Shown: piece after piece, positions 3,467 to 47,050 of the stretch
Layout: every line of letters begins with the position of its first letter
How positions within the stretch are numbered: position 1 is the stretch's first letter
Source of the DNA: Octopus vulgaris
Taxonomy: Eukaryota
Direction of reading: 5' to 3'
Assembly: GCA_951406725.2 (NCBI GenBank)
Contig: OX597816.1
Location: forward strand, 130,758,001 to 130,822,000
DNA: 64,000 bases
Notes under the pieces: generated by a model
The model's database searches: none
The model's input: the letters and a program-made list of their open reading frames with translations, nothing else
Told to the model about the DNA's origin: nothing
Translations under genes and position numbers: made by a program

Positions 3467-4410
3467 TACACTAATATATGAATCCACCTCTGATACGTGG
3501 CACTTGATCAACAAGGGAGTTCGATGCTGCTGCCCGCATCTGCGTCTCCTGTCGTGAGGTAGGTTCATCTGGGACTCCCGACAAGAAGAGATACAGTTTA
3601 GTTTTAAAGAAACCCACATCCACACCGTGTAAGTCTCTCAGGCATTTAGGGAGGATGTTAAAGAGCTGTGGTCCTCTGAAACCCAAGCTGTTGCAGTATC
3701 TGGTCCTGTATTTTGATGGTGATGTTGGAATCTTTGGCACCATGCAGTGGCGCCCCGTTCTGCGGTTGGGGTAACTTGAATGCCAAAGTTTGAGACAAGA
3801 CCCTCCAGGATTTTCCAGATGTATATCACCGCATATCTCTCCCGCCTCCGCTCTAGGGAGAAGAGGTTTAATACTTTCAGTCTTTCCCAGTAGCTGATAT
3901 TTTGCATTGAGACGAGCTTCTTTGTGTAGCTTCTCTGAATTGCTTCGAGTTCTGCTGTTAGTTTTATATTGTGTGGTGACCATAGTTGGGAGCAGTAGTC
4001 CAAGCGACTGAGGACGAATGTTTTCCAGAGGACCATCAGTGTCTCCTTCTCTCTTGTTCTGAAAGTTCGGAGAATCCATCCAGCAAGCCGTCTGCATTTT
4101 ATCACCAGATTAGTAATATGCACTTGGAAAGATGCAATCATTGCTCATGTCAATGCCTAGGTCACGCACTGATTTTGACTCAGGGATTGCAATTCTTCCT
4201 GGGCCAGTGTATCCAGTCTGCACGTCGTTTACCTTTGTGTGCCGGTAGCGCAGGGCCTGGAACTTACCTGCATTAAACTGCATGTTGTTGTCCTCCGCCC
4301 ACCTGTATATTTTATCCAACTCCTGTTGCAGATGCGCGCAATATTTTCAGGGTTTTGTATTGTGTGGGAGATTTTTGTGTCATCTGCATAGCTAGCAAGG
4401 GTGGCCATAC
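3467..4410 (-). mobile_element. CR1/L2-group LINE 3' fragment (RT C-terminus), frameshifted
   Basis: Overlapping ORFs contain YADDTK, WAEDNNMQFNAGKF, VRDLGI, LSRLDYCSQLWSP and YWERLKVLNLFSLERRRER. Confidence 0.9.
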
Positions 4411-5254: not shown

Positions 5255-5943
5255 AAGGAAAGTCAAAAATTATCCGCACTTTCACCATATCTTTATTGTT
5301 GTCACACTGCCTTCTGCGCATGCGTGCTTATAGTTGGTACTATTGTGGTCATGTGATCGAAGTTTGAGCCTGATCGTGCCATTTTTTTCTGGCTTCACAG
5401 TGTAAGCATGGCTACTCCACTAGCAATGTGTACCAAAGAAGAACTAAGAGTAGTGATCTGATTTCTCTCGAAAAGGGGTACACGATCAACAGTGCATGAT
5501 ACAGTGCTTTGCTGGTCAACAAACTGAAGCCAGCTATTCGCACCAAACGTCGAAGCCTATTGTCGAAGTAAGTTTTGTTGACCCACACAAAGCCGCCCAG
5601 ACCGTTAAAGCCATTAACCAATTGGGTTCTAAGGTGCTGGAGCACCCTGCCTACAGTCCAGATCTCGCCTCTTCCGACTATCATATCTTTGGACCGCTCA
5701 GAGATGGTTTACGAGGTCATCGATTTCCAACAAATGAAGATGTGAAGGAAGCGGTACATAAATTGTTGCATGACCAATCGAAAATCTTCTTCTCGCTGGG
5801 AATACACAAGCTTGTGGACCGCTGGACCAAATGCATCGAAAAATAGGGAGACTATATAGAAAAATCATGTACTTGTTTATCCTCTGCTTTTGTGTAAATG
5901 TATTGAAAAAACAAGAGTGTGCATAATTTTTGTCTATCCCTTG
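5252..5943 (+). mobile_element. Internally deleted mariner transposon
   Basis: ORF 5496-5846 has HPAYSPDLASSDYHIFGPL and GIHKLVDRWTKC. Imperfect TIRs are AGTCAAAAATTATCCGCACT and AGTGTGCATAATTTTTGTCT. It sits in (TA)n. Confidence 0.9.
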
Positions 5944-6382: not shown

Positions 6383-6612
6383 GTACTAGGTGTACGTGCG
6401 CAAACAGAGAATTCCGGGAGCTTATGTGCGTACAATTCCAGCGCATGTTTCGAAATTGATAGCGGCATTCTTGAACACCGAGTTTAACCCCTTCACCAAC
6501 AACTACAATAGCATCGGGTCTTCTTTGGCAAATGGAGCGTTGTTTTGGCACCAAATCAGGAATTTTATTACAAATAATGTTTGCTCCGAACGCCACCACG
6601 GATGACAGGGCC
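6383..6612 (-). CDS. Wnt7: Wnt7 internal coding exon (exon 2), N-terminal part of the Wnt domain
   Basis: Translates to [76 protein letters not shown]. This closely matches vertebrate WNT7B ([60 protein letters not shown]). The acceptor is (TTTA)n-TTTTTGCAG ending at 6613 and the donor is GTAAGT at 6382-6377. The exon is 230 nt, phase 2 in and phase 1 out. Confidence 0.96.
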
Positions 6613-17879: not shown

Positions 17880-18860
17880 GTTCTATTCGCCAGGAATCCA
17901 GTGTAGAGGTTTTCCACGGATTCCAACATTTGCCAATTTTGAGAGTAAGATATGGTCAACCCTGTCGAACGCTTTACTGATGTCAAGATATACGACATCA
18001 GAGTTCGAACCTGTTCCCAAGGCTTTAAGTATATCTTCAATGTGGTGTAAGAGCTGTGTTAGACAGTCCCTGCCATAGAATAAAAAAATCATAGACAGTC
18101 CCTGCCACAGCGAAAGCCATGCTGATTTGCGTTTAGGAGTTTGTGGGTCTCCAGGAAGTCAGCTATCCTTGATTTTATCACTCTTTCAAACACTTTAATG
18201 ATTTGGGAGGTGAGTGAGATTGGGCGATAGTTGACTGCGAGGGATCTGTTTCCCTGTTTAAAAACCGGGATGACAGACTAGGATTGGACCTGTTTCGGTA
18301 TATAACCTGAGTCTAAAGAATTTCTCCAGAAGTTGGTTAGAGGGATTGCAAGTTGGTGTCTACATTCCTTCAGGGGGCTAGCGGGGAATCTATCAGGGCC
18401 TATAGCAGAATACTATTTGACCTTATTTATTGAAGCTATGACGTCCGAGGCAGTGAAGGTTATGTCCGAGATTTTATGTTGGGAATCAACTTCGTTCGCT
18501 TCTCTTTCATAGATAAGAGTGGGATCACTAAAGACAGAACAGCATTGTTTCTGCAGTATTTCTGCCATTTCTTTAGCATCGTTTTGGGGAATGCCGTTAT
18601 CATCGATCAATGGGCCTAATGGGTGAGACAGCGGTTCTATGCTTATTTGCATAAGAATAGAACACTTCTGGGTTCTGTTTGATGTGTGCTGTTTAGGTGA
18701 GGTTCAGTAAGGATAAAGAAAGGGAAGCAATGTGCCATTTCGGCAAGCCAACTCTCTATATATGGGATCTTCCATTTTTGGGCAATGAGTGATGGGATGA
18801 TGCCACGTACATTTAACAGGAATGTCGAGGTAGGAGTAGTTTGATGTTTGCATTGTTCTA
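17880..18860 (-). mobile_element. CR1-group LINE ORF2 remnant with internal deletions (APE start and RT N-terminal half)
   Basis: LLNVRG..ILTEPHL (APE N-terminus), GPD-F-A, NYRPISLTS, QHGFR, and CLTQLL..VVYLDISKAFDRVDH. Confidence 0.88.
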
Positions 18861-19684
18861 AGTTATGTTTTATTTTGTTCAGAGGTGGCAATGAGGGTAT
18901 TTTTTGTATGGAGCTATGTGTTTATGATTTTCTCGTTGGTGGTGGGTGTGTGTTCCTTATGTTTTGCATAAATGGTTGCTGATAGCTCGTTGGATCTCCT
19001 GGCTTAGGTCGGCCTTCATATTTTCTAGAGAAGTTAGTAAAAAGAGTTGCCTCTTTGGTTTGCCACTTGGTCAGAGGATACATAGTTCATGTTCATGTTA
19101 TTTGGTTTGGTGTTATGGTTTTCTCATAGTTCTGTCTTCATTGTTTGGTTGTAGATGGGGAAATGTGGTTGTATTTTGTTTTTGTTGTCGTCGTAGGTCT
19201 CCTCTGTTGTTGGTTGGTCCCGCAATTGGGGTGACCATATTTTTGACTGTTGGTATAGGAATATTTATTTTTCGATCGTGTTTTGCCCTTCAGATGGTGG
19301 TGGTTGCATATATATATATATATGTATGTATATATATATATATGGCATCTAAAAAAAGAAATCGGATCAACTCCCCAACGAACTTGAAGTCATGATTTCC
19401 TCCTCATTGCTTCCATCTTAACCCAACTGCTACCAATGTTCAACAACCTAGGTCATTTGTGCTGCTGTTCCTTTAATATGTCAATGATATTTTTGTAATA
19501 TACAAGCAATCGCTTAAATATACAAATTCTATTTTAGTTCTGCAATGAATGATTCTGTTCAGAAAAATAAAAAATAAAAATCTTCTTAGCATTCGCAACA
19601 CTTATTGTTGTCTGCCTTTTTTACCACATTGAATCCTGTCCACACACACACACAGACTACTACTATTACTGCTGCTGCTGCTGG

Positions 19685-28775: not shown

Positions 28776-29250
28776 AGGACACTAATGAAATCCGTCGGAA
28801 GGATAATCCCGAGGACAAAGAAATAAGAACCCATAATATGGTAGAAGCCATAGCCATTCATAATGAAAAGGAATACTGGTGGAGTGTACCAATGAAGACC
28901 TCAATAAAATGTAAGCACAACAGACCTGATATAATGATTTGGGATAAGGAAGAGAAACTGTGCACAGTTGTGGAAATAAACTGCCCAGCTAGTGTTAACA
29001 TAAAGCTGAAGATCAGTGAAAAAGCGAACACCTATGCTGAACTATTGAGAAATCTGCATATACTCTATCCATATTACAAGTTCAGATTTATACCTGTAAT
29101 TATTGTGGCGTTGGGATATGTAACACGCTGCCTAAATACCAAACTTGAGAAATTAGGCTTCTCAAAACCAGAATGGAGAAAGCTAATTCGAAGACTACAG
29201 CTCCAATCCATCACTGGAACTGTAAAATTCTGTAAAACTTTTCATTGGAA
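28776..29250 (+). mobile_element. R4/Dong-type (RLE) non-LTR retrotransposon 3' fragment
   Basis: KHNRPDIMIWDKEEKLCTVVEINCP...EK..TY.EL...IPVIIVALG is a PD-(D/E)xK restriction-like endonuclease. It is inserted beside (TACA)n. Confidence 0.88.
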
Positions 29251-29906
29251 TTTCAACATCAACAACAGGGCATTTTGTATGTATGTAGGTATACGTGCAG
29301 GTTGTTATGCCTTGTTTTATTTATGTCTTTTCACGCATATACTTGCATATCTAGACATGCTCATATACTTAAATGACAAACTTTTGGAAAGTTTTACAGA
29401 TTTTTACAGTTCCAATAATGGACTGGATCTGTAGTATGTATCTACGTATGTATGCATGCATGCATGCATGCATGTGTGTGTGTGTGTGTCTATGTGTCTA
29501 TGTATGCATGTATTTTTGTATGTATGCATAGGTCACATACAAACACATTTACAACCAGATGCATAAAACGTACGAGTATAATAAATCCGGAACGTTTTGA
29601 AGTTTGCTATTATCCTTTCATTAAGCGTGGAACTTTTAATTACTGCAGTTATGTTGTTGCCATTGTCTTTAGATGTTAAAATAATTATGTCTTCAGACTT
29701 TTAGAAGGTTGATGTTGTATAAATACAATTTCATCGATCGAACATAGACAAAAGAAGATAATGTTGTTAGCAAAAAATCTATGCAGGATGAAAGAGATGC
29801 GCAGATACAAAATCTCTTTGGAATTTAAGCAAGTGTGGAAAAAATTAAGAAATTCAATACACAAACACACACACATGTAGACATACATACATATACTACC
29901 ATACGT

Positions 29907-30829: not shown

Positions 30830-30982
30830 CGGGCTTCTTTAAGTTTCCAACTACCAAATCCACTCACATGTCTTTGGTCGGTTCGAGGCTATGGTAGAGC
30901 CTAAGGTGCACTCAGTGGGATTGAACCCGGAACCATGTGGTTGAGAAGCAAGCTTCTTACCATACAGCCACGCCTGCGCCTA
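30830..30982 (-). mobile_element. SINE family B head
   Basis: Reverse complement of the family B head. Confidence 0.85.
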
Positions 30983-31028
30983 TTTATACATATACATACA
31001 CACACACACATATATATATAAGACTTGT

Positions 31029-31660
31029 TACTGTTGTTTATAGCCCCAGGAGGACATCTCCTCCAGCTGGCTAACGACACACTGTCTGTGTCCGATTAGT
31101 ATTTGCTAAGGGGGATCGTCGTTCCCATCTCTAGCCTTACGTGATGCACACGGACCCGGGTTTCTAGGTAGTAACCCGTCATCAGTGTGCGATAATCACT
31201 AGCTAGCGATGAAAAACTCCGCAAAATACTGTATGCTTTTTTCTAGTGACAAACTGTTTTTGATCTCGAAAAAAGAGAAACAAGCAATATTAAATCTCTG
31301 AGGGAGATGTAAACAGTGGCAGCTCGGAATCGTGAAATATATTTACCATTTATATGTGGCGGGCTCATAGGGGACGATGCTACTGTTGTTTATAGCCCCA
31401 GGAGGACATCTCTTCCGGCTGGTTAACGACACACTGTCTGTGTCCGATTAGAACGTAAGGCTAGAGAAGGGAAAGATGATTTCCCTTCGCAAATACTAAT
31501 CGGACACGGACAGTGTGTCGTTAGCCAGCTGGAGGAGATGTCCTCCTGGGGCTATAAACAACAGTAGCATCGTCCCCTATGGGTCCGCCACATTTAGGTG
31601 GTAAATATAGTTTACGATTCCGTGCTGCTACTGTTTACATCCATCTCGCCCAGAGATTTA
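31029..31660. mobile_element. Hammerhead-containing partial-tandem plus inverted repeat (retrozyme-like or Penelope pLTR-like)
   Basis: Direct repeat 31029-31099 vs 31381-31451 (period 352 bp). Inverted arms 31291-31451 vs 31497-31660. Segment 31453-31496 is the inverse of 31100-31143. Confidence 0.8.
31146..31191 (-). ncRNA. Minimal type I hammerhead ribozyme motif
   Basis: CGCACA-CTGATGA-CGGGT-TACT-ACCTA-GAAA-C-CCGG-GTC^CGTGTG. The catalytic core is complete and stem III is the palindrome ACCCGGGT. The core-adjacent pairs of stems I and II are mismatched. Confidence 0.75.
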
Positions 31661-31712
31661 TTATTGCATATATATATATATATAAACATATATATATATA
31701 TACACACAAATA

Positions 31713-31743
<31 letters not shown>

Positions 31744-32059
31744 CTGTGTGTGTCTTGTATTTGTCATCCCATCGCTTGATAGCTGGTATTGCTTTGTTTG
31801 CATCCTCTTACCTTCGTGGTTCAATAAATCGGACAGTTAGAATAAGTACCAGACTGAAAAATAAGTCCTGGCGCCGATTTGTTCGACAAACCTTATAAAG
31901 CGATGCTCCTGCAGTTGCAGTCCAATGACTGAAACAGGTAAAAGTGTAAAGAAAATTTTTGGCAACGGGTATGTTTCTTTACGTCCACTGGTGCCATTTT
32001 TAGGTCGTAGGCCATGGAAACCACGTAAGGAACGCCTAGTGTTGTATTTTAAAAATTAT

Positions 32060-35571: not shown

Positions 35572-36908
35572 CGAGGGTGAGTAAAAAACGTAATGCCATT
35601 TTTAGGACAGGTATAATTACCAACACAGGAACATGTATCATACATCAAAATGAAGTTGGTCCTCTGTGGATCACATCTCTACTTCTCAACATAGTCACCG
35701 TTTTTTTTCAATAGCAATGTTCCACCTTCGAATGAGCGCATATATTCCTGCCCCGTAAAATTCTGTTGACTTGTTCTTTGAGCCACTTTTTCACTACGGT
35801 TTTCACTTCCTCGTCACTGGAATAATGTTTGCCTCTCAAACCCTCTTTCATGAGGCCGAAGAGATGATAGTCTGAAGGCGCTAAATCTGGTGAGTATGGA
35901 GGATGCAGTAAAGTTGTCCACCTGAATGAGGCGATTGTTTCCCTTGTCCTGATGCTTGTGTGTGTTCAAGCATTGTCAATCAGAAGGAGGACATTGTCGA
36001 TTGGCAAGTTGGGTCTTACTCGTCGGATTCTTGCTTTGAGCCTCGCCAGGGTCCTAATGTAGGCCTCAGAGTTTATTGTTTTTTCCTTTTGGCAAGAAAT
36101 TGACCAGAATGACACTTTTGAGCATCCCAAAGCACAATCGCCTTGATTTTTCCAGCTGACTTTTGCATCTAGAACTTTTTCGGTGGTGGTGACGTAGAGT
36201 GACGCCATTCCATTGACTGCCTCTTTGATTCCGGTTCATAATGATGAACCCATGTTTCATCACCTGTTACGAGCCTTCGAAAGAAGATGTTGTCTCTTTG
36301 ACTTTGTTCGAGAAGTTCAGTTCAGGCATTGACCCCCTCAGTTTTGCATTCAGTTGTCAGCTCTCTCTTGGTACCCAACGAACACACACTTTTCAAAAGC
36401 CAAGTGATTCGACAGTGTTGTAAGCACTTCCATGGCTCACTTCAAGGTTTTCTGTCAACTCATCAAGAGTTATGTGCCTGTCATCTCTGATCAGAACATC
36501 TGCTATTGGCAGGATTTACAGAAGCGGACGGACGGCCAGAACGGGGTTTATCAGCTACACTCACAATTCCCACCTTTTCATCTTTCAGACGACGGACCCA
36601 CCTGCATACATTGCTATAATCTAAAGTATTCTCCTCAAAGACATTTTGTAATCGTCGGTGAATGTTCACAAAGAGCTCCCCCTTAGCAACAAGAAATTCA
36701 ATCACTGCTCTTTGTTCTTGACGTAACTCTAAGGGGGGAAGCCATTTTGAATTTTTCTTATCAGTCTAAAAACCTGAAAAGTAAGAAACAAAATATTTCA
36801 GAAGATAAATGATAGAATCATTTATAACTGGGAAAATTTTCAGTTATTTTGGTCAAAAACTTCACATGAAATAAAAAAGATATGGCATTACTTTTTGAGT
36901 CACTCTCG
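35572..36908 (-). mobile_element. Near full-length decayed mariner (~1.34 kb)
   Basis: TIRs CGAGGGTGAGTAAAAAACGTAATGCCAT and ATGGCATTACTTTTTGAGTCACTCTCG, with TA TSD. Frameshifted motifs include IEFLVAKG, DKPRSGRP, WVPRE, DETWVHHYEPESK and PPYSPDLAPSDYHLFG. Confidence 0.93.
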
Positions 36909-46190: not shown

Positions 46191-46598
46191 TGTTAGTTAG
46201 TTAATTTTTGGCTCAAAAAGCAAAAAGCAAGGCCATGTAGGGGGACATGGAGTTATGTACAGGGTGGTGCTCATGTAAAGAGTTCAGGCCACTTGTGGTC
46301 AAGGGAGACTTTGAACCGAGCGGTCGTCGGCATCTTCACCATCTCGTCTGGCAGCTTATTCCACGGATCTGCAACCCGGACGGAGAAAGCCCCTCTCCTT
46401 CGATTGAGATGAAATCGTCGCAGATAGAGCTTTTCGGAGTGACCCCGCAGCCGACGCTCTGGAGCAGGAGTGAAGAACAGCTCTTTCGAAAGGTTACACT
46501 TTCCGCTTATGATGTTGTGAGCAAGAATGAGATCACCACGGCGTCGTCGTTTTTCTAGAGAATAAAGGTCGAGCGTCTTCAGCCTTTCTTCGTATGCA
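46191..46598 (-). mobile_element. CR1-like LINE 3' end
   Basis: YEERLKTLDLYSLEKRRRRGDLI...LRGHSEKL...FSVRVADPWNKLP, with a (TAAC)n tail. Confidence 0.92.
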
Positions 46599-46624
46599 TA
46601 TGTGTGTATTTTTTCTTTTCTTTT

Positions 46625-47050
46625 TTTATTTGTATCAGTCACTTGCTGTGACCATGCCGGAGTACCGCCTTTAGTCGAACAAATCGATCCCAGGACTTAT
46701 TCTTTGTAAGCCTAGTTCTTATCTTACCGGTCTCTTTTGCCGAAGCGCTAAGTTACGGGGACGTAAACACACCAACATCGGTTGTGAAGTGATGGTGGGG
46801 GGACAAGCACATACACACAAACATACATACATACATATACATACATACATATATACATACATATATATATACATACATCTATATATATATATACATACAT
46901 ACGTCGGGCTTCTTTCGGTTTCCGTCTAACAAATCCACTCACAAGGCTTTGGTCGGTCCGAGCGTATAGTAGAAGACACTTGCCCAAGTTGCCACGTAGT
47001 GGGACTGAACTCGGAACCATGTGGTTGGTAAGCAAGCTACTTACCATACA
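46625..47050 (-). mobile_element. SINE family B
   Basis: Head, internal microsatellite and tail. Confidence 0.85.

Follow-up and report, generated by a model that had tools for sequence, protein, structure and literature searches.

A probable non-autonomous, Penelope-mobilised retrozyme family in Octopus, represented by a decayed copy in a likely Wnt7b intron

Introduction

A 352-bp repeat with a hammerhead ribozyme motif, lying in the same stretch of Octopus DNA as an exon of Wnt7b, raises the question of what kind of element it is: a member of an independent family of ribozyme-bearing retroelements, the end of a coding Penelope-like element (PLE), a relic with a dead ribozyme, or a repeat that resembles a hammerhead by chance. 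Metazoan non-LTR retrozymes are small non-coding units with GC below 50% and a type I hammerhead, those of mussels being 350-390 bp long (PMC7229834), and vertebrate non-LTR retrozymes have been argued to be non-autonomous PLE derivatives (Li, Clavereau & Pollet 2026, bioRxiv 10.64898/2026.07.22.740005). PLEs themselves insert as partial tandems with a 5'-truncated inverted copy and a bias towards microsatellites (PMC8557442/bioRxiv 2021.04.23.441226, Craig et al. 2021). Further, AT-rich DNA is cut in vitro by a purified anole Penelope-like protein, which then extends both strands; reverse transcription begins at an internal AC-rich stem-loop, about 85-92 nt beyond the cut of the anole element (PMC11167929, Frangieh et al. 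2024). In O. vulgaris, 30 Penelope families have been recently active (PMC13282606 Table 1).

Hence, we examined the repeat within its window, i.e., the whole 64-kb stretch of DNA analysed, and in read-derived contigs. We propose that the locus is probably a decayed copy of a many-copy, non-autonomous retrozyme family of Octopus that is mobilised by Penelope proteins.

Architecture of the insertion

The insertion extends over ~31021-31667, between a (CA)n(AT)n microsatellite on the left (31000-31025) and an (AT)n microsatellite on the right (31668-31720), with no target-site duplication evident at either flank. Its full 352-bp unit (31029-31380, minus strand) is non-coding, has a GC content of 44.6% and forms part of a direct array, copy A (31026-31451, minus strand), of 426 nt or 1.21 units. 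Numbered in RNA sense from the predicted cut site, copy A runs from +54 through the hammerhead to +352 and on to +127 of the next unit. The upstream 74-nt piece, which is 5'-truncated and pseudo-LTR-like (31378-31451, minus strand), is the source of the partial tandem: 31026-31099 recurs at 31378-31451 with a spacing of 352 and 70 of 74 positions identical. This bears out the tandem 352-bp unit that a sequence-only reading of the stretch had described. Its non-coding character is likewise upheld, with no stop-to-stop frame of more than 49 codons inside the insertion, where the repeats abut directly with no RT plus GIY-YIG ORF between them.

Next to the array lies an inverted copy, copy B (31453-31667, plus strand), of 215 nt or ~0.6 unit, which spans unit positions +11 to +221, lacks the hammerhead core, crosses the tandem junction and is ~90% identical to copy A. 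Against 31142->31026, 109 of its 117 bases match; past the end-to-start junction, on to 31284, 82 of 94 match with a 4-nt gap. Copy B begins 10 nt downstream of the predicted cut. The resulting hairpin has arms at 31284-31451 and 31496-31667, in which 152 of 168 aligned bases match with one 4-nt gap; thus, the inversion had been correctly read from the letters, whereas its arms are ~170 bp rather than ~160 bp long. The 5' ends of A and B meet, and both 3' ends face the AT microsatellite, at +127 and +221, i.e., 94 nt apart at this one locus. Outside the insertion, the 64-kb window holds no further copy of the unit.

The part of the unit with the least letter variation (see below) is the 45-nt segment 31029-31073 (minus strand), in which a 6-bp hairpin, itself part of a longer stem, precedes an AC-rich tract. 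Copy A ends in this tract, beside the hairpin, and we infer that the segment is a candidate site of recognition or initiation by the reverse transcriptase. Separately, a small second hairpin lies 3' of the cut (31110-31126), and its counterpart in copy B (31466-31488) is a perfect 9-bp stem. Across the family, places 31114 and 31122 of this hairpin differ (A-U versus G-C) at comparable frequencies, which hints at covariation beyond the ribozyme itself.

The hammerhead motif

The type I hammerhead motif (31141-31199, minus strand) contains the core, the stems and a palindrome. In 5' to 3' order on the minus strand, a 5-bp outer stem I (31199-31195/31145-31141) encloses an inner stem I (31191-31186/31152-31147) with five of six pairs in this copy; there follow the core CUGAUGA (31185-31179), a stem II of four pairs (31177-31174/31169-31166) set between C31178 and A31165, the GAAA (31164-31161) and the perfect palindrome ACCCGGGT (31161-31154), which is its own reverse complement and holds stem III. 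The conserved core CUGANGA/GAAA/UH is present, and the cut is predicted between 31153 and 31152. As a duplex, the palindrome ACCCGGGT has a computed energy of -14.9 kcal/mol.

The core string CTGATGA..GAAACCCGGGTC (31185-31153, minus strand) matches once in the window and in none of 100 shuffles; the looser CTGANGA..GAAA pattern has 10 matches in the window, of which only that at 31185-31153 has the stem III described above. Thus, the complete minus-strand core, the palindromic stem III and the cut position expected by the sequence-only reading all stand. Its description of the hammerhead as minimal does not: a helix I of 6 bp and a helix II of 4 bp are those of a canonical metazoan type I hammerhead. 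The minimal hammerhead of PLEs (min-HHR) has a helix II of 7-8 bp (~6 in the consensus), a helix I of 4-5 bp and a poorly defined loop 1 (PMC4209133), and the octopus motif, with its helix II of 4 bp and helix I of 6+5 bp, falls outside this form. The Rfam scan that the same reading had proposed, run on 5 kb and on the unit, returned no hammerhead family even at E<=10, the other matches being limited to microsatellite-driven miRNAs and one lncRNA at E=1.2.

Two mismatches lie beside the core, namely A.C at 31186/31152 and C.A at 31178/31165, so that C31178 and A31165 stand unpaired between the core and the four pairs of stem II. The locus, with 1.21 direct units and 0.6 of an inverted unit devoid of the core, has a single hammerhead core; therefore, neither release of a monomer nor a dimer in cis is available to it.

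A many-copy family with a 352-bp period

We surveyed contigs with a likeness of at least 80% to the unit in four of the 24 runs listed (20 holders, none listed as RNA, under six organism labels), none of the four bearing label C, E or F. The three DNA runs X1, X3 and X9 (labels A, B and D) have 2876, 1918 and 2707 matching contigs, respectively, with 30 of 30 bins occupied in each. Run X17, the type of which is guessed to be RNA, has 48 contigs in 27 of 30 bins and is not counted as expression. Each of the three DNA runs has joints that go back to 31029 from 31379/31380, and with the 38 and 32 filler letters present in joints from 31341 and 31348, respectively, the period again comes to 351-352; hence, the 352-bp period is a family trait. 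With 1918-2876 contigs per DNA run and the junction in three runs, the possibility that the unit is single-copy, which the sequence-only reading had named as fatal to its own claim, falls away. Four strand-changing joints among 15 of the 94 joints indicate that inversions are not unique to this locus either.

Among 24 of the 732 loose ends near the 3' side of the unit, the sequence runs on either as the next unit or as variant sequences with hairpins, and no ORF is evident beyond them. The short contigs listed include none that spans the whole unit, and hence no array with two intact cores. Unit-specific patterns have no match in metagenome contigs and none in viral contigs; the sole match of a pattern in genome contigs, a 23-bp chance match in a bacterial MAG of 66% GC, was rejected.

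Common alternative letters were found at 39 of the 352 places, as judged from 40 of 136 rows; the lowest of these 40 has a share of ~0.43 in some run, and the other 96 are presumed to be minority letters. Several of these alternatives bear on the ribozyme. At 31166, a G.U pair in this copy is G-C in the family (shares of 0.94/0.83/0.92 in 114/90/92 contigs of X1/X3/X9), and at 31190 a G.U pair is A-U (0.85/0.80/0.92). At 31152, the A.C mismatch is replaced by A-U in about half of the family (0.51/0.47/0.50), and with this letter inner stem I has six of six pairs in about half of the family depth. One loose end in X1 reveals a subfamily with G at 31186, which would pair with C31152. No alternative is seen at C31178, A31165 or the 13 core places among the 40 of 136 rows. 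Hence, of the two mismatches that the sequence-only reading had taken as specific to this copy, both are real, but the C.A at the base of stem II (or two extra bases there) seems to be family-wide. The axolotl HHR_Amex2 tolerates a U.U at the equivalent place, where the octopus unit has C.A (PMC7229834).

The comparison of core and flanks that the same reading had suggested did not yield a significant difference (0 of 13 core places variable versus 39 of 352 overall, P about 0.22). The least variable stretch of the unit is instead 31029-31073, with no common alternative letter at any of its 45 places. In this copy, roughly 25 of the 352 places hold the minority letter, a pattern that would fit an old or minor copy.

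Two side observations concern the same end of the unit. Summed contig depth is 10-30x higher at 31041-31076 than at the hammerhead, which is a hint only, as depth cannot rank the parts of the unit. At loose ends in 31032-31041, several subfamilies share the hairpin segment and diverge just beyond it, each with a short hairpin of its own. A more abundant family may share the unit end at 31029-31073.

Predicted folding

As a circle, the unit folds better than its shuffles in both senses (z -3.0 for the sense and -3.2 for the antisense strand). The hammerhead region itself folds strongly (z -4.1), as a rod rather than in the active form, with the core and the 5' strand of stem II paired to the palindrome and the 3' strand of stem I. 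The rod is 15.9 kcal/mol lower than the active fold in this copy and 9.5-11.4 kcal/mol lower with the family letters; on a rough dimer sum for two molecules, the active fold still falls 4-9 kcal/mol short. Two letters private to this copy, at 31190 and 31146, form a pair in the register of the rod and not in that of the active fold, and this single event counts against the active fold. At 31166 and 31152, both of which are unpaired in the rod, the family letters benefit the active fold alone; C31178 is paired in the rod and mismatched in stem II. The hairpins of 31021-31152 are no better than shuffles (z -1.2), and the long hairpin of the sense strand reaches -271 kcal/mol over 391 nt.

With its one core and more stable blocked fold, this copy is predicted to be inactive. 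Nearest-neighbour folding models omit core and loop-loop contacts, and so intact members may still be active despite the predicted rod. The anole ribozyme points the same way, since it cleaved only with protein (PMC11167929).

Host gene context

Exon 2 of Wnt7b lies at 6384-6612 on the minus strand, the same strand as the hammerhead and downstream of the insertion in gene sense, with 76 of 76 residues identical to Octopus Wnt-7b. Over 75 residues, it shows no difference from O. bimaculoides, O. sinensis and O. vulgaris and four differences from Argonauta and squids. The annotated first exons of Octopus Wnt7b have no match within the 64-kb window, so the insertion likely sits in the first Wnt7b intron, which would be more than 57 kb long, on the sense strand of the gene. 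Thus, the placement within a Wnt7 intron by the sequence-only reading holds as regards exon 2, whereas the intron itself is deduced, with exon 1 outside the window.

A 49-codon ORF at 40837-40689 (minus strand) opens with what strongly resembles a signal peptide, closes with a phase-2 donor-like site, and could be spliced in frame to Wnt7b exon 2. We rejected it as Wnt7b exon 1, given that the annotated Octopus first exons differ from it and are absent from the window; it could be a chance frame or an unannotated alternative exon. A direct duplication of ~270 bp, with its copies ~760 bp apart (~40260-40000 and ~39500-39230), has a GA/AT microsatellite beside each copy.

The surroundings hold the remains of other elements. 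A 218-codon frame at 28778-29431 (plus strand) presumably corresponds to the C-terminal restriction-like endonuclease region of an R4/Dong-type LINE, and we take the frames at 3474-4273, 5457-5843, 17886-18921, 36408-36765 and 46241-46696 to be decayed LINE RT-like and mariner transposase-like frames. Interspersed short repeats flank the insertion on both sides (~30870-30980 and ~31770-31950); that on the left we take to be related to a tRNA-derived octopus SINE.

Cutting of the Wnt7b pre-mRNA by this copy is unlikely because a single core is present, a partner in cis is lacking and the blocked fold is the more stable one. The copy is probably inert apart from its ~170-bp hairpin in the likely Wnt7b intron. 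Given that octopus RNA is subject to hyper-editing (PMC5625713), the sense-strand hairpin is a plausible ADAR substrate.

Relationship to known elements

In its 352-bp head-to-tail period, observed at the locus and in X1, X3 and X9, and its type I hammerhead, the unit has the form of a retrozyme, for which units of 150-450 bp are the rule; it is also non-coding, of low GC (44.6%) and many-copy (1918-2876 contigs per DNA run). A family with a ~352-bp head-to-tail period, a full hammerhead core and a palindromic stem III is thus on hand. Its closest likenesses are the ~350-390 bp repeats of Mytilus galloprovincialis and the axolotl Rtz_353/HHR_Amex2, with which it shares unit size, GC below 50%, the lack of an ORF, a canonical type I hammerhead, a palindromic short helix III, many copies and the tandem junction (PMC7229834). 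It differs from these in its cephalopod host and, at this locus, in having one core and an inversion. Further, a self-blocked monomer core is predicted for the octopus unit, whereas PMC7229834 reports blocking for some mussel circles only. Hence, the octopus unit is likely a retrozyme, a kind of element already known from other animals.

The insertion, in turn, resembles the pseudo-LTRs (pLTRs) of EN+ PLEs in its partial tandem, 5'-truncated inverted copy, AT-microsatellite target, lack of a target-site duplication and palindromic helix III (PMC4209133, Craig et al. 2021, PMC11167929); the first three of these match the described PLE layout. It also resembles them in having its 3' end at an AC-rich tract beside a hairpin, in the octopus ~125 nt past the cut. 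In contrast to EN+ PLEs, with an RT/GIY-YIG ORF between the repeats and a 30-40-nt tail, the octopus locus has no such ORF and a 94-nt difference between its ends; it is not an autonomous PLE.

The vertebrate retrozymes share with the octopus unit the model of origin and mobilisation, the prevalence of monomers and short arrays, and many inactive copies; in Xenopus they derive from pLTRs, and one of nine predicted dimers cleaved (bioRxiv 2026.07.22.740005). Their link to PLEs is drawn from pLTR homology, as against insertion geometry in the octopus unit, and the 35 species of that study, as its text lists them, include no mollusc class (bioRxiv 10.64898/2026.07.22.740005). Among cephalopods, the giant squid genome has 235 Rfam Hammerhead_1 loci, counted without description of an element (PMC6962438). 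Type I hammerheads were thus already on record from a cephalopod; the octopus copy, unlike these loci, does not score with Rfam.

No retrozyme from an octopus or any other cephalopod came up in the literature searched, although repeat libraries (Repbase, Dfam, O. vulgaris) may already contain the family. Two cephalopod repeat papers make no mention of ribozymes; one of these is the 2026 O. vulgaris study, in its main text as well as in its supplement (PMC13282606).

Weighing the alternatives

The sequence-only reading had proposed a non-autonomous ribozyme family mobilised by Penelope, and the many copies and PLE-like layout agree with this; no coding partner, in contrast, came to light, as no Penelope ORF tied to the unit was seen at the locus or among the 24 of 732 loose ends. 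Against the retrozyme interpretation stand the lack of an Rfam hammerhead match, the predicted preference for the rod even with family letters, the seemingly family-wide C.A at the base of stem II, the non-significant difference in variability between the core and the rest, and the low yield of active dimers in Xenopus. Two features of the locus add to these: its one hammerhead falls short of the two consecutive complete motifs that mark an active retrozyme, such that the locus is not "active" by the rule of bioRxiv 10.64898/2026.07.22.740005, and the 94 nt between its 3' ends exceed the 30-40-nt PLE tail.

The best surviving rival, which we nonetheless judge improbable, is that the unit is only the pLTR of a coding PLE, with the insertions being truncated ends rather than an independent non-autonomous family. 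Such an account can appeal to the PLE-typical layout of the insertion and to a stem II that may be read as the PLE consensus CUGANGA-H-G...C (PMC4209133). PLEs are, moreover, abundant, making up 6.83% of O. vulgaris in 190 families (PMC13282606 supplement), and the Logan contigs are short, with the loose-end evidence coming from 24 of 732. It has difficulty with the end-to-start junction free of any ORF, which is found twice at the locus in copies ~10% apart and again in the three DNA runs, with helices of canonical size (6 and 4 bp rather than the 4-5 and 7-8 bp of the min-HHR) and with the lack of a frame longer than 49 codons in the insertion. An origin of the unit from a pLTR is expected.

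Somewhat less probable again is a relic with a dead ribozyme: a former retrozyme or pLTR, the RNA of which is kept as a self-paired rod that travels uncut, like a SINE, as a passenger of Penelope proteins and forms no circles. The blocked rod is indeed the predicted fold of this copy and of the family letters (z -4.1), but contacts within the core and between loops are not part of nearest-neighbour models. C31178 is paired in the rod and mismatched in stem II, and the least variable stretch is 31029-31073 rather than the core; yet all core letters and the palindrome appear to be retained, and the family letters at 31166 and 31152 improve catalytic pairs where the rod leaves the bases unpaired. 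The anole PLE could insert in vitro without hammerhead cleavage, although the anole ribozyme cleaved only with protein (PMC11167929). Lastly, copy A reads through an uncut site, whereas copy B ends 10 nt from the cut.

Very improbable is a satellite-like DNA repeat that resembles a hammerhead by chance, its tandem and inversion being local DNA rearrangements. Although Rfam gave no hammerhead match and the exact core string occurs 71 times by chance in metagenomes, none of 70 such matches has both stems; moreover, the junction is shared across the family, (AT)n borders the insertion at either end, and copy A differs from copy B by ~10%. In this control, the generic core pattern was used to fetch 71 metagenome matches, none of them similar to the 352-bp unit, and 70 were scored (L066 being too short); three reach the level of the locus in stem I, 15 in stem II and none in both.

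A plausible mechanism

Returning to the Penelope-mobilised retrozyme family, we advance the following plausible sequence of events. Tandem arrays would be transcribed, and intact members would cut as dimers through the 8-nt palindrome; the monomers may then be closed to circles by a host ligase. At this locus, a Penelope-like protein would have nicked both strands of the (AT)n tract and primed two cDNAs, one per flank, which were joined 5' to 5'. The template of copy A would have been an uncut multimer or a circle because, at 426 nt, the copy is longer than one unit and reads through the cut site. That of copy B possibly ran to a cleaved 5' end, with synthesis stopping 10 nt short of the cut; as the chance of one of two ends falling within 10 nt of the cut is about 6%, this end is only suggestive as a record of cleaved RNA. 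After insertion, the copy would have decayed.

We also consider a bolder version, to which we assign a low likelihood, on a par with that of the pLTR account. It envisages a living, pan-Octopus retrozyme family in which the hammerhead is an intrinsic switch, off in the rod and turned on by palindrome dimerisation or by the Penelope protein; the hairpin and AC tract of 31029-31073 would be the start signal of the Penelope RT, and inverted copies ending just after the cut would record a cleaved template. If true, this would explain how animal retrozyme circles avoid being cut again and would give retrozymes a mechanical link to Penelope-type priming, and it would do so in an animal in which intronic copies on the sense strand also fold into long hairpins for A-to-I editing.

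Conclusions

If the favoured interpretation, a non-autonomous Penelope-mobilised retrozyme family of Octopus, is correct, the unit extends the non-LTR retrozymes to cephalopods. It would also be a natural case of a retrozyme-type unit with a full Penelope insertion signature, and would thereby support a link between retrozymes and Penelope that has so far been argued from co-occurrence and pLTR homology. The family would be useful for the annotation of octopus repeats. Finally, should intact members both cut and circularise, their self-blocked fold would bear on how the circles of animal retrozymes escape re-cleavage, a question raised in PMC7229834.
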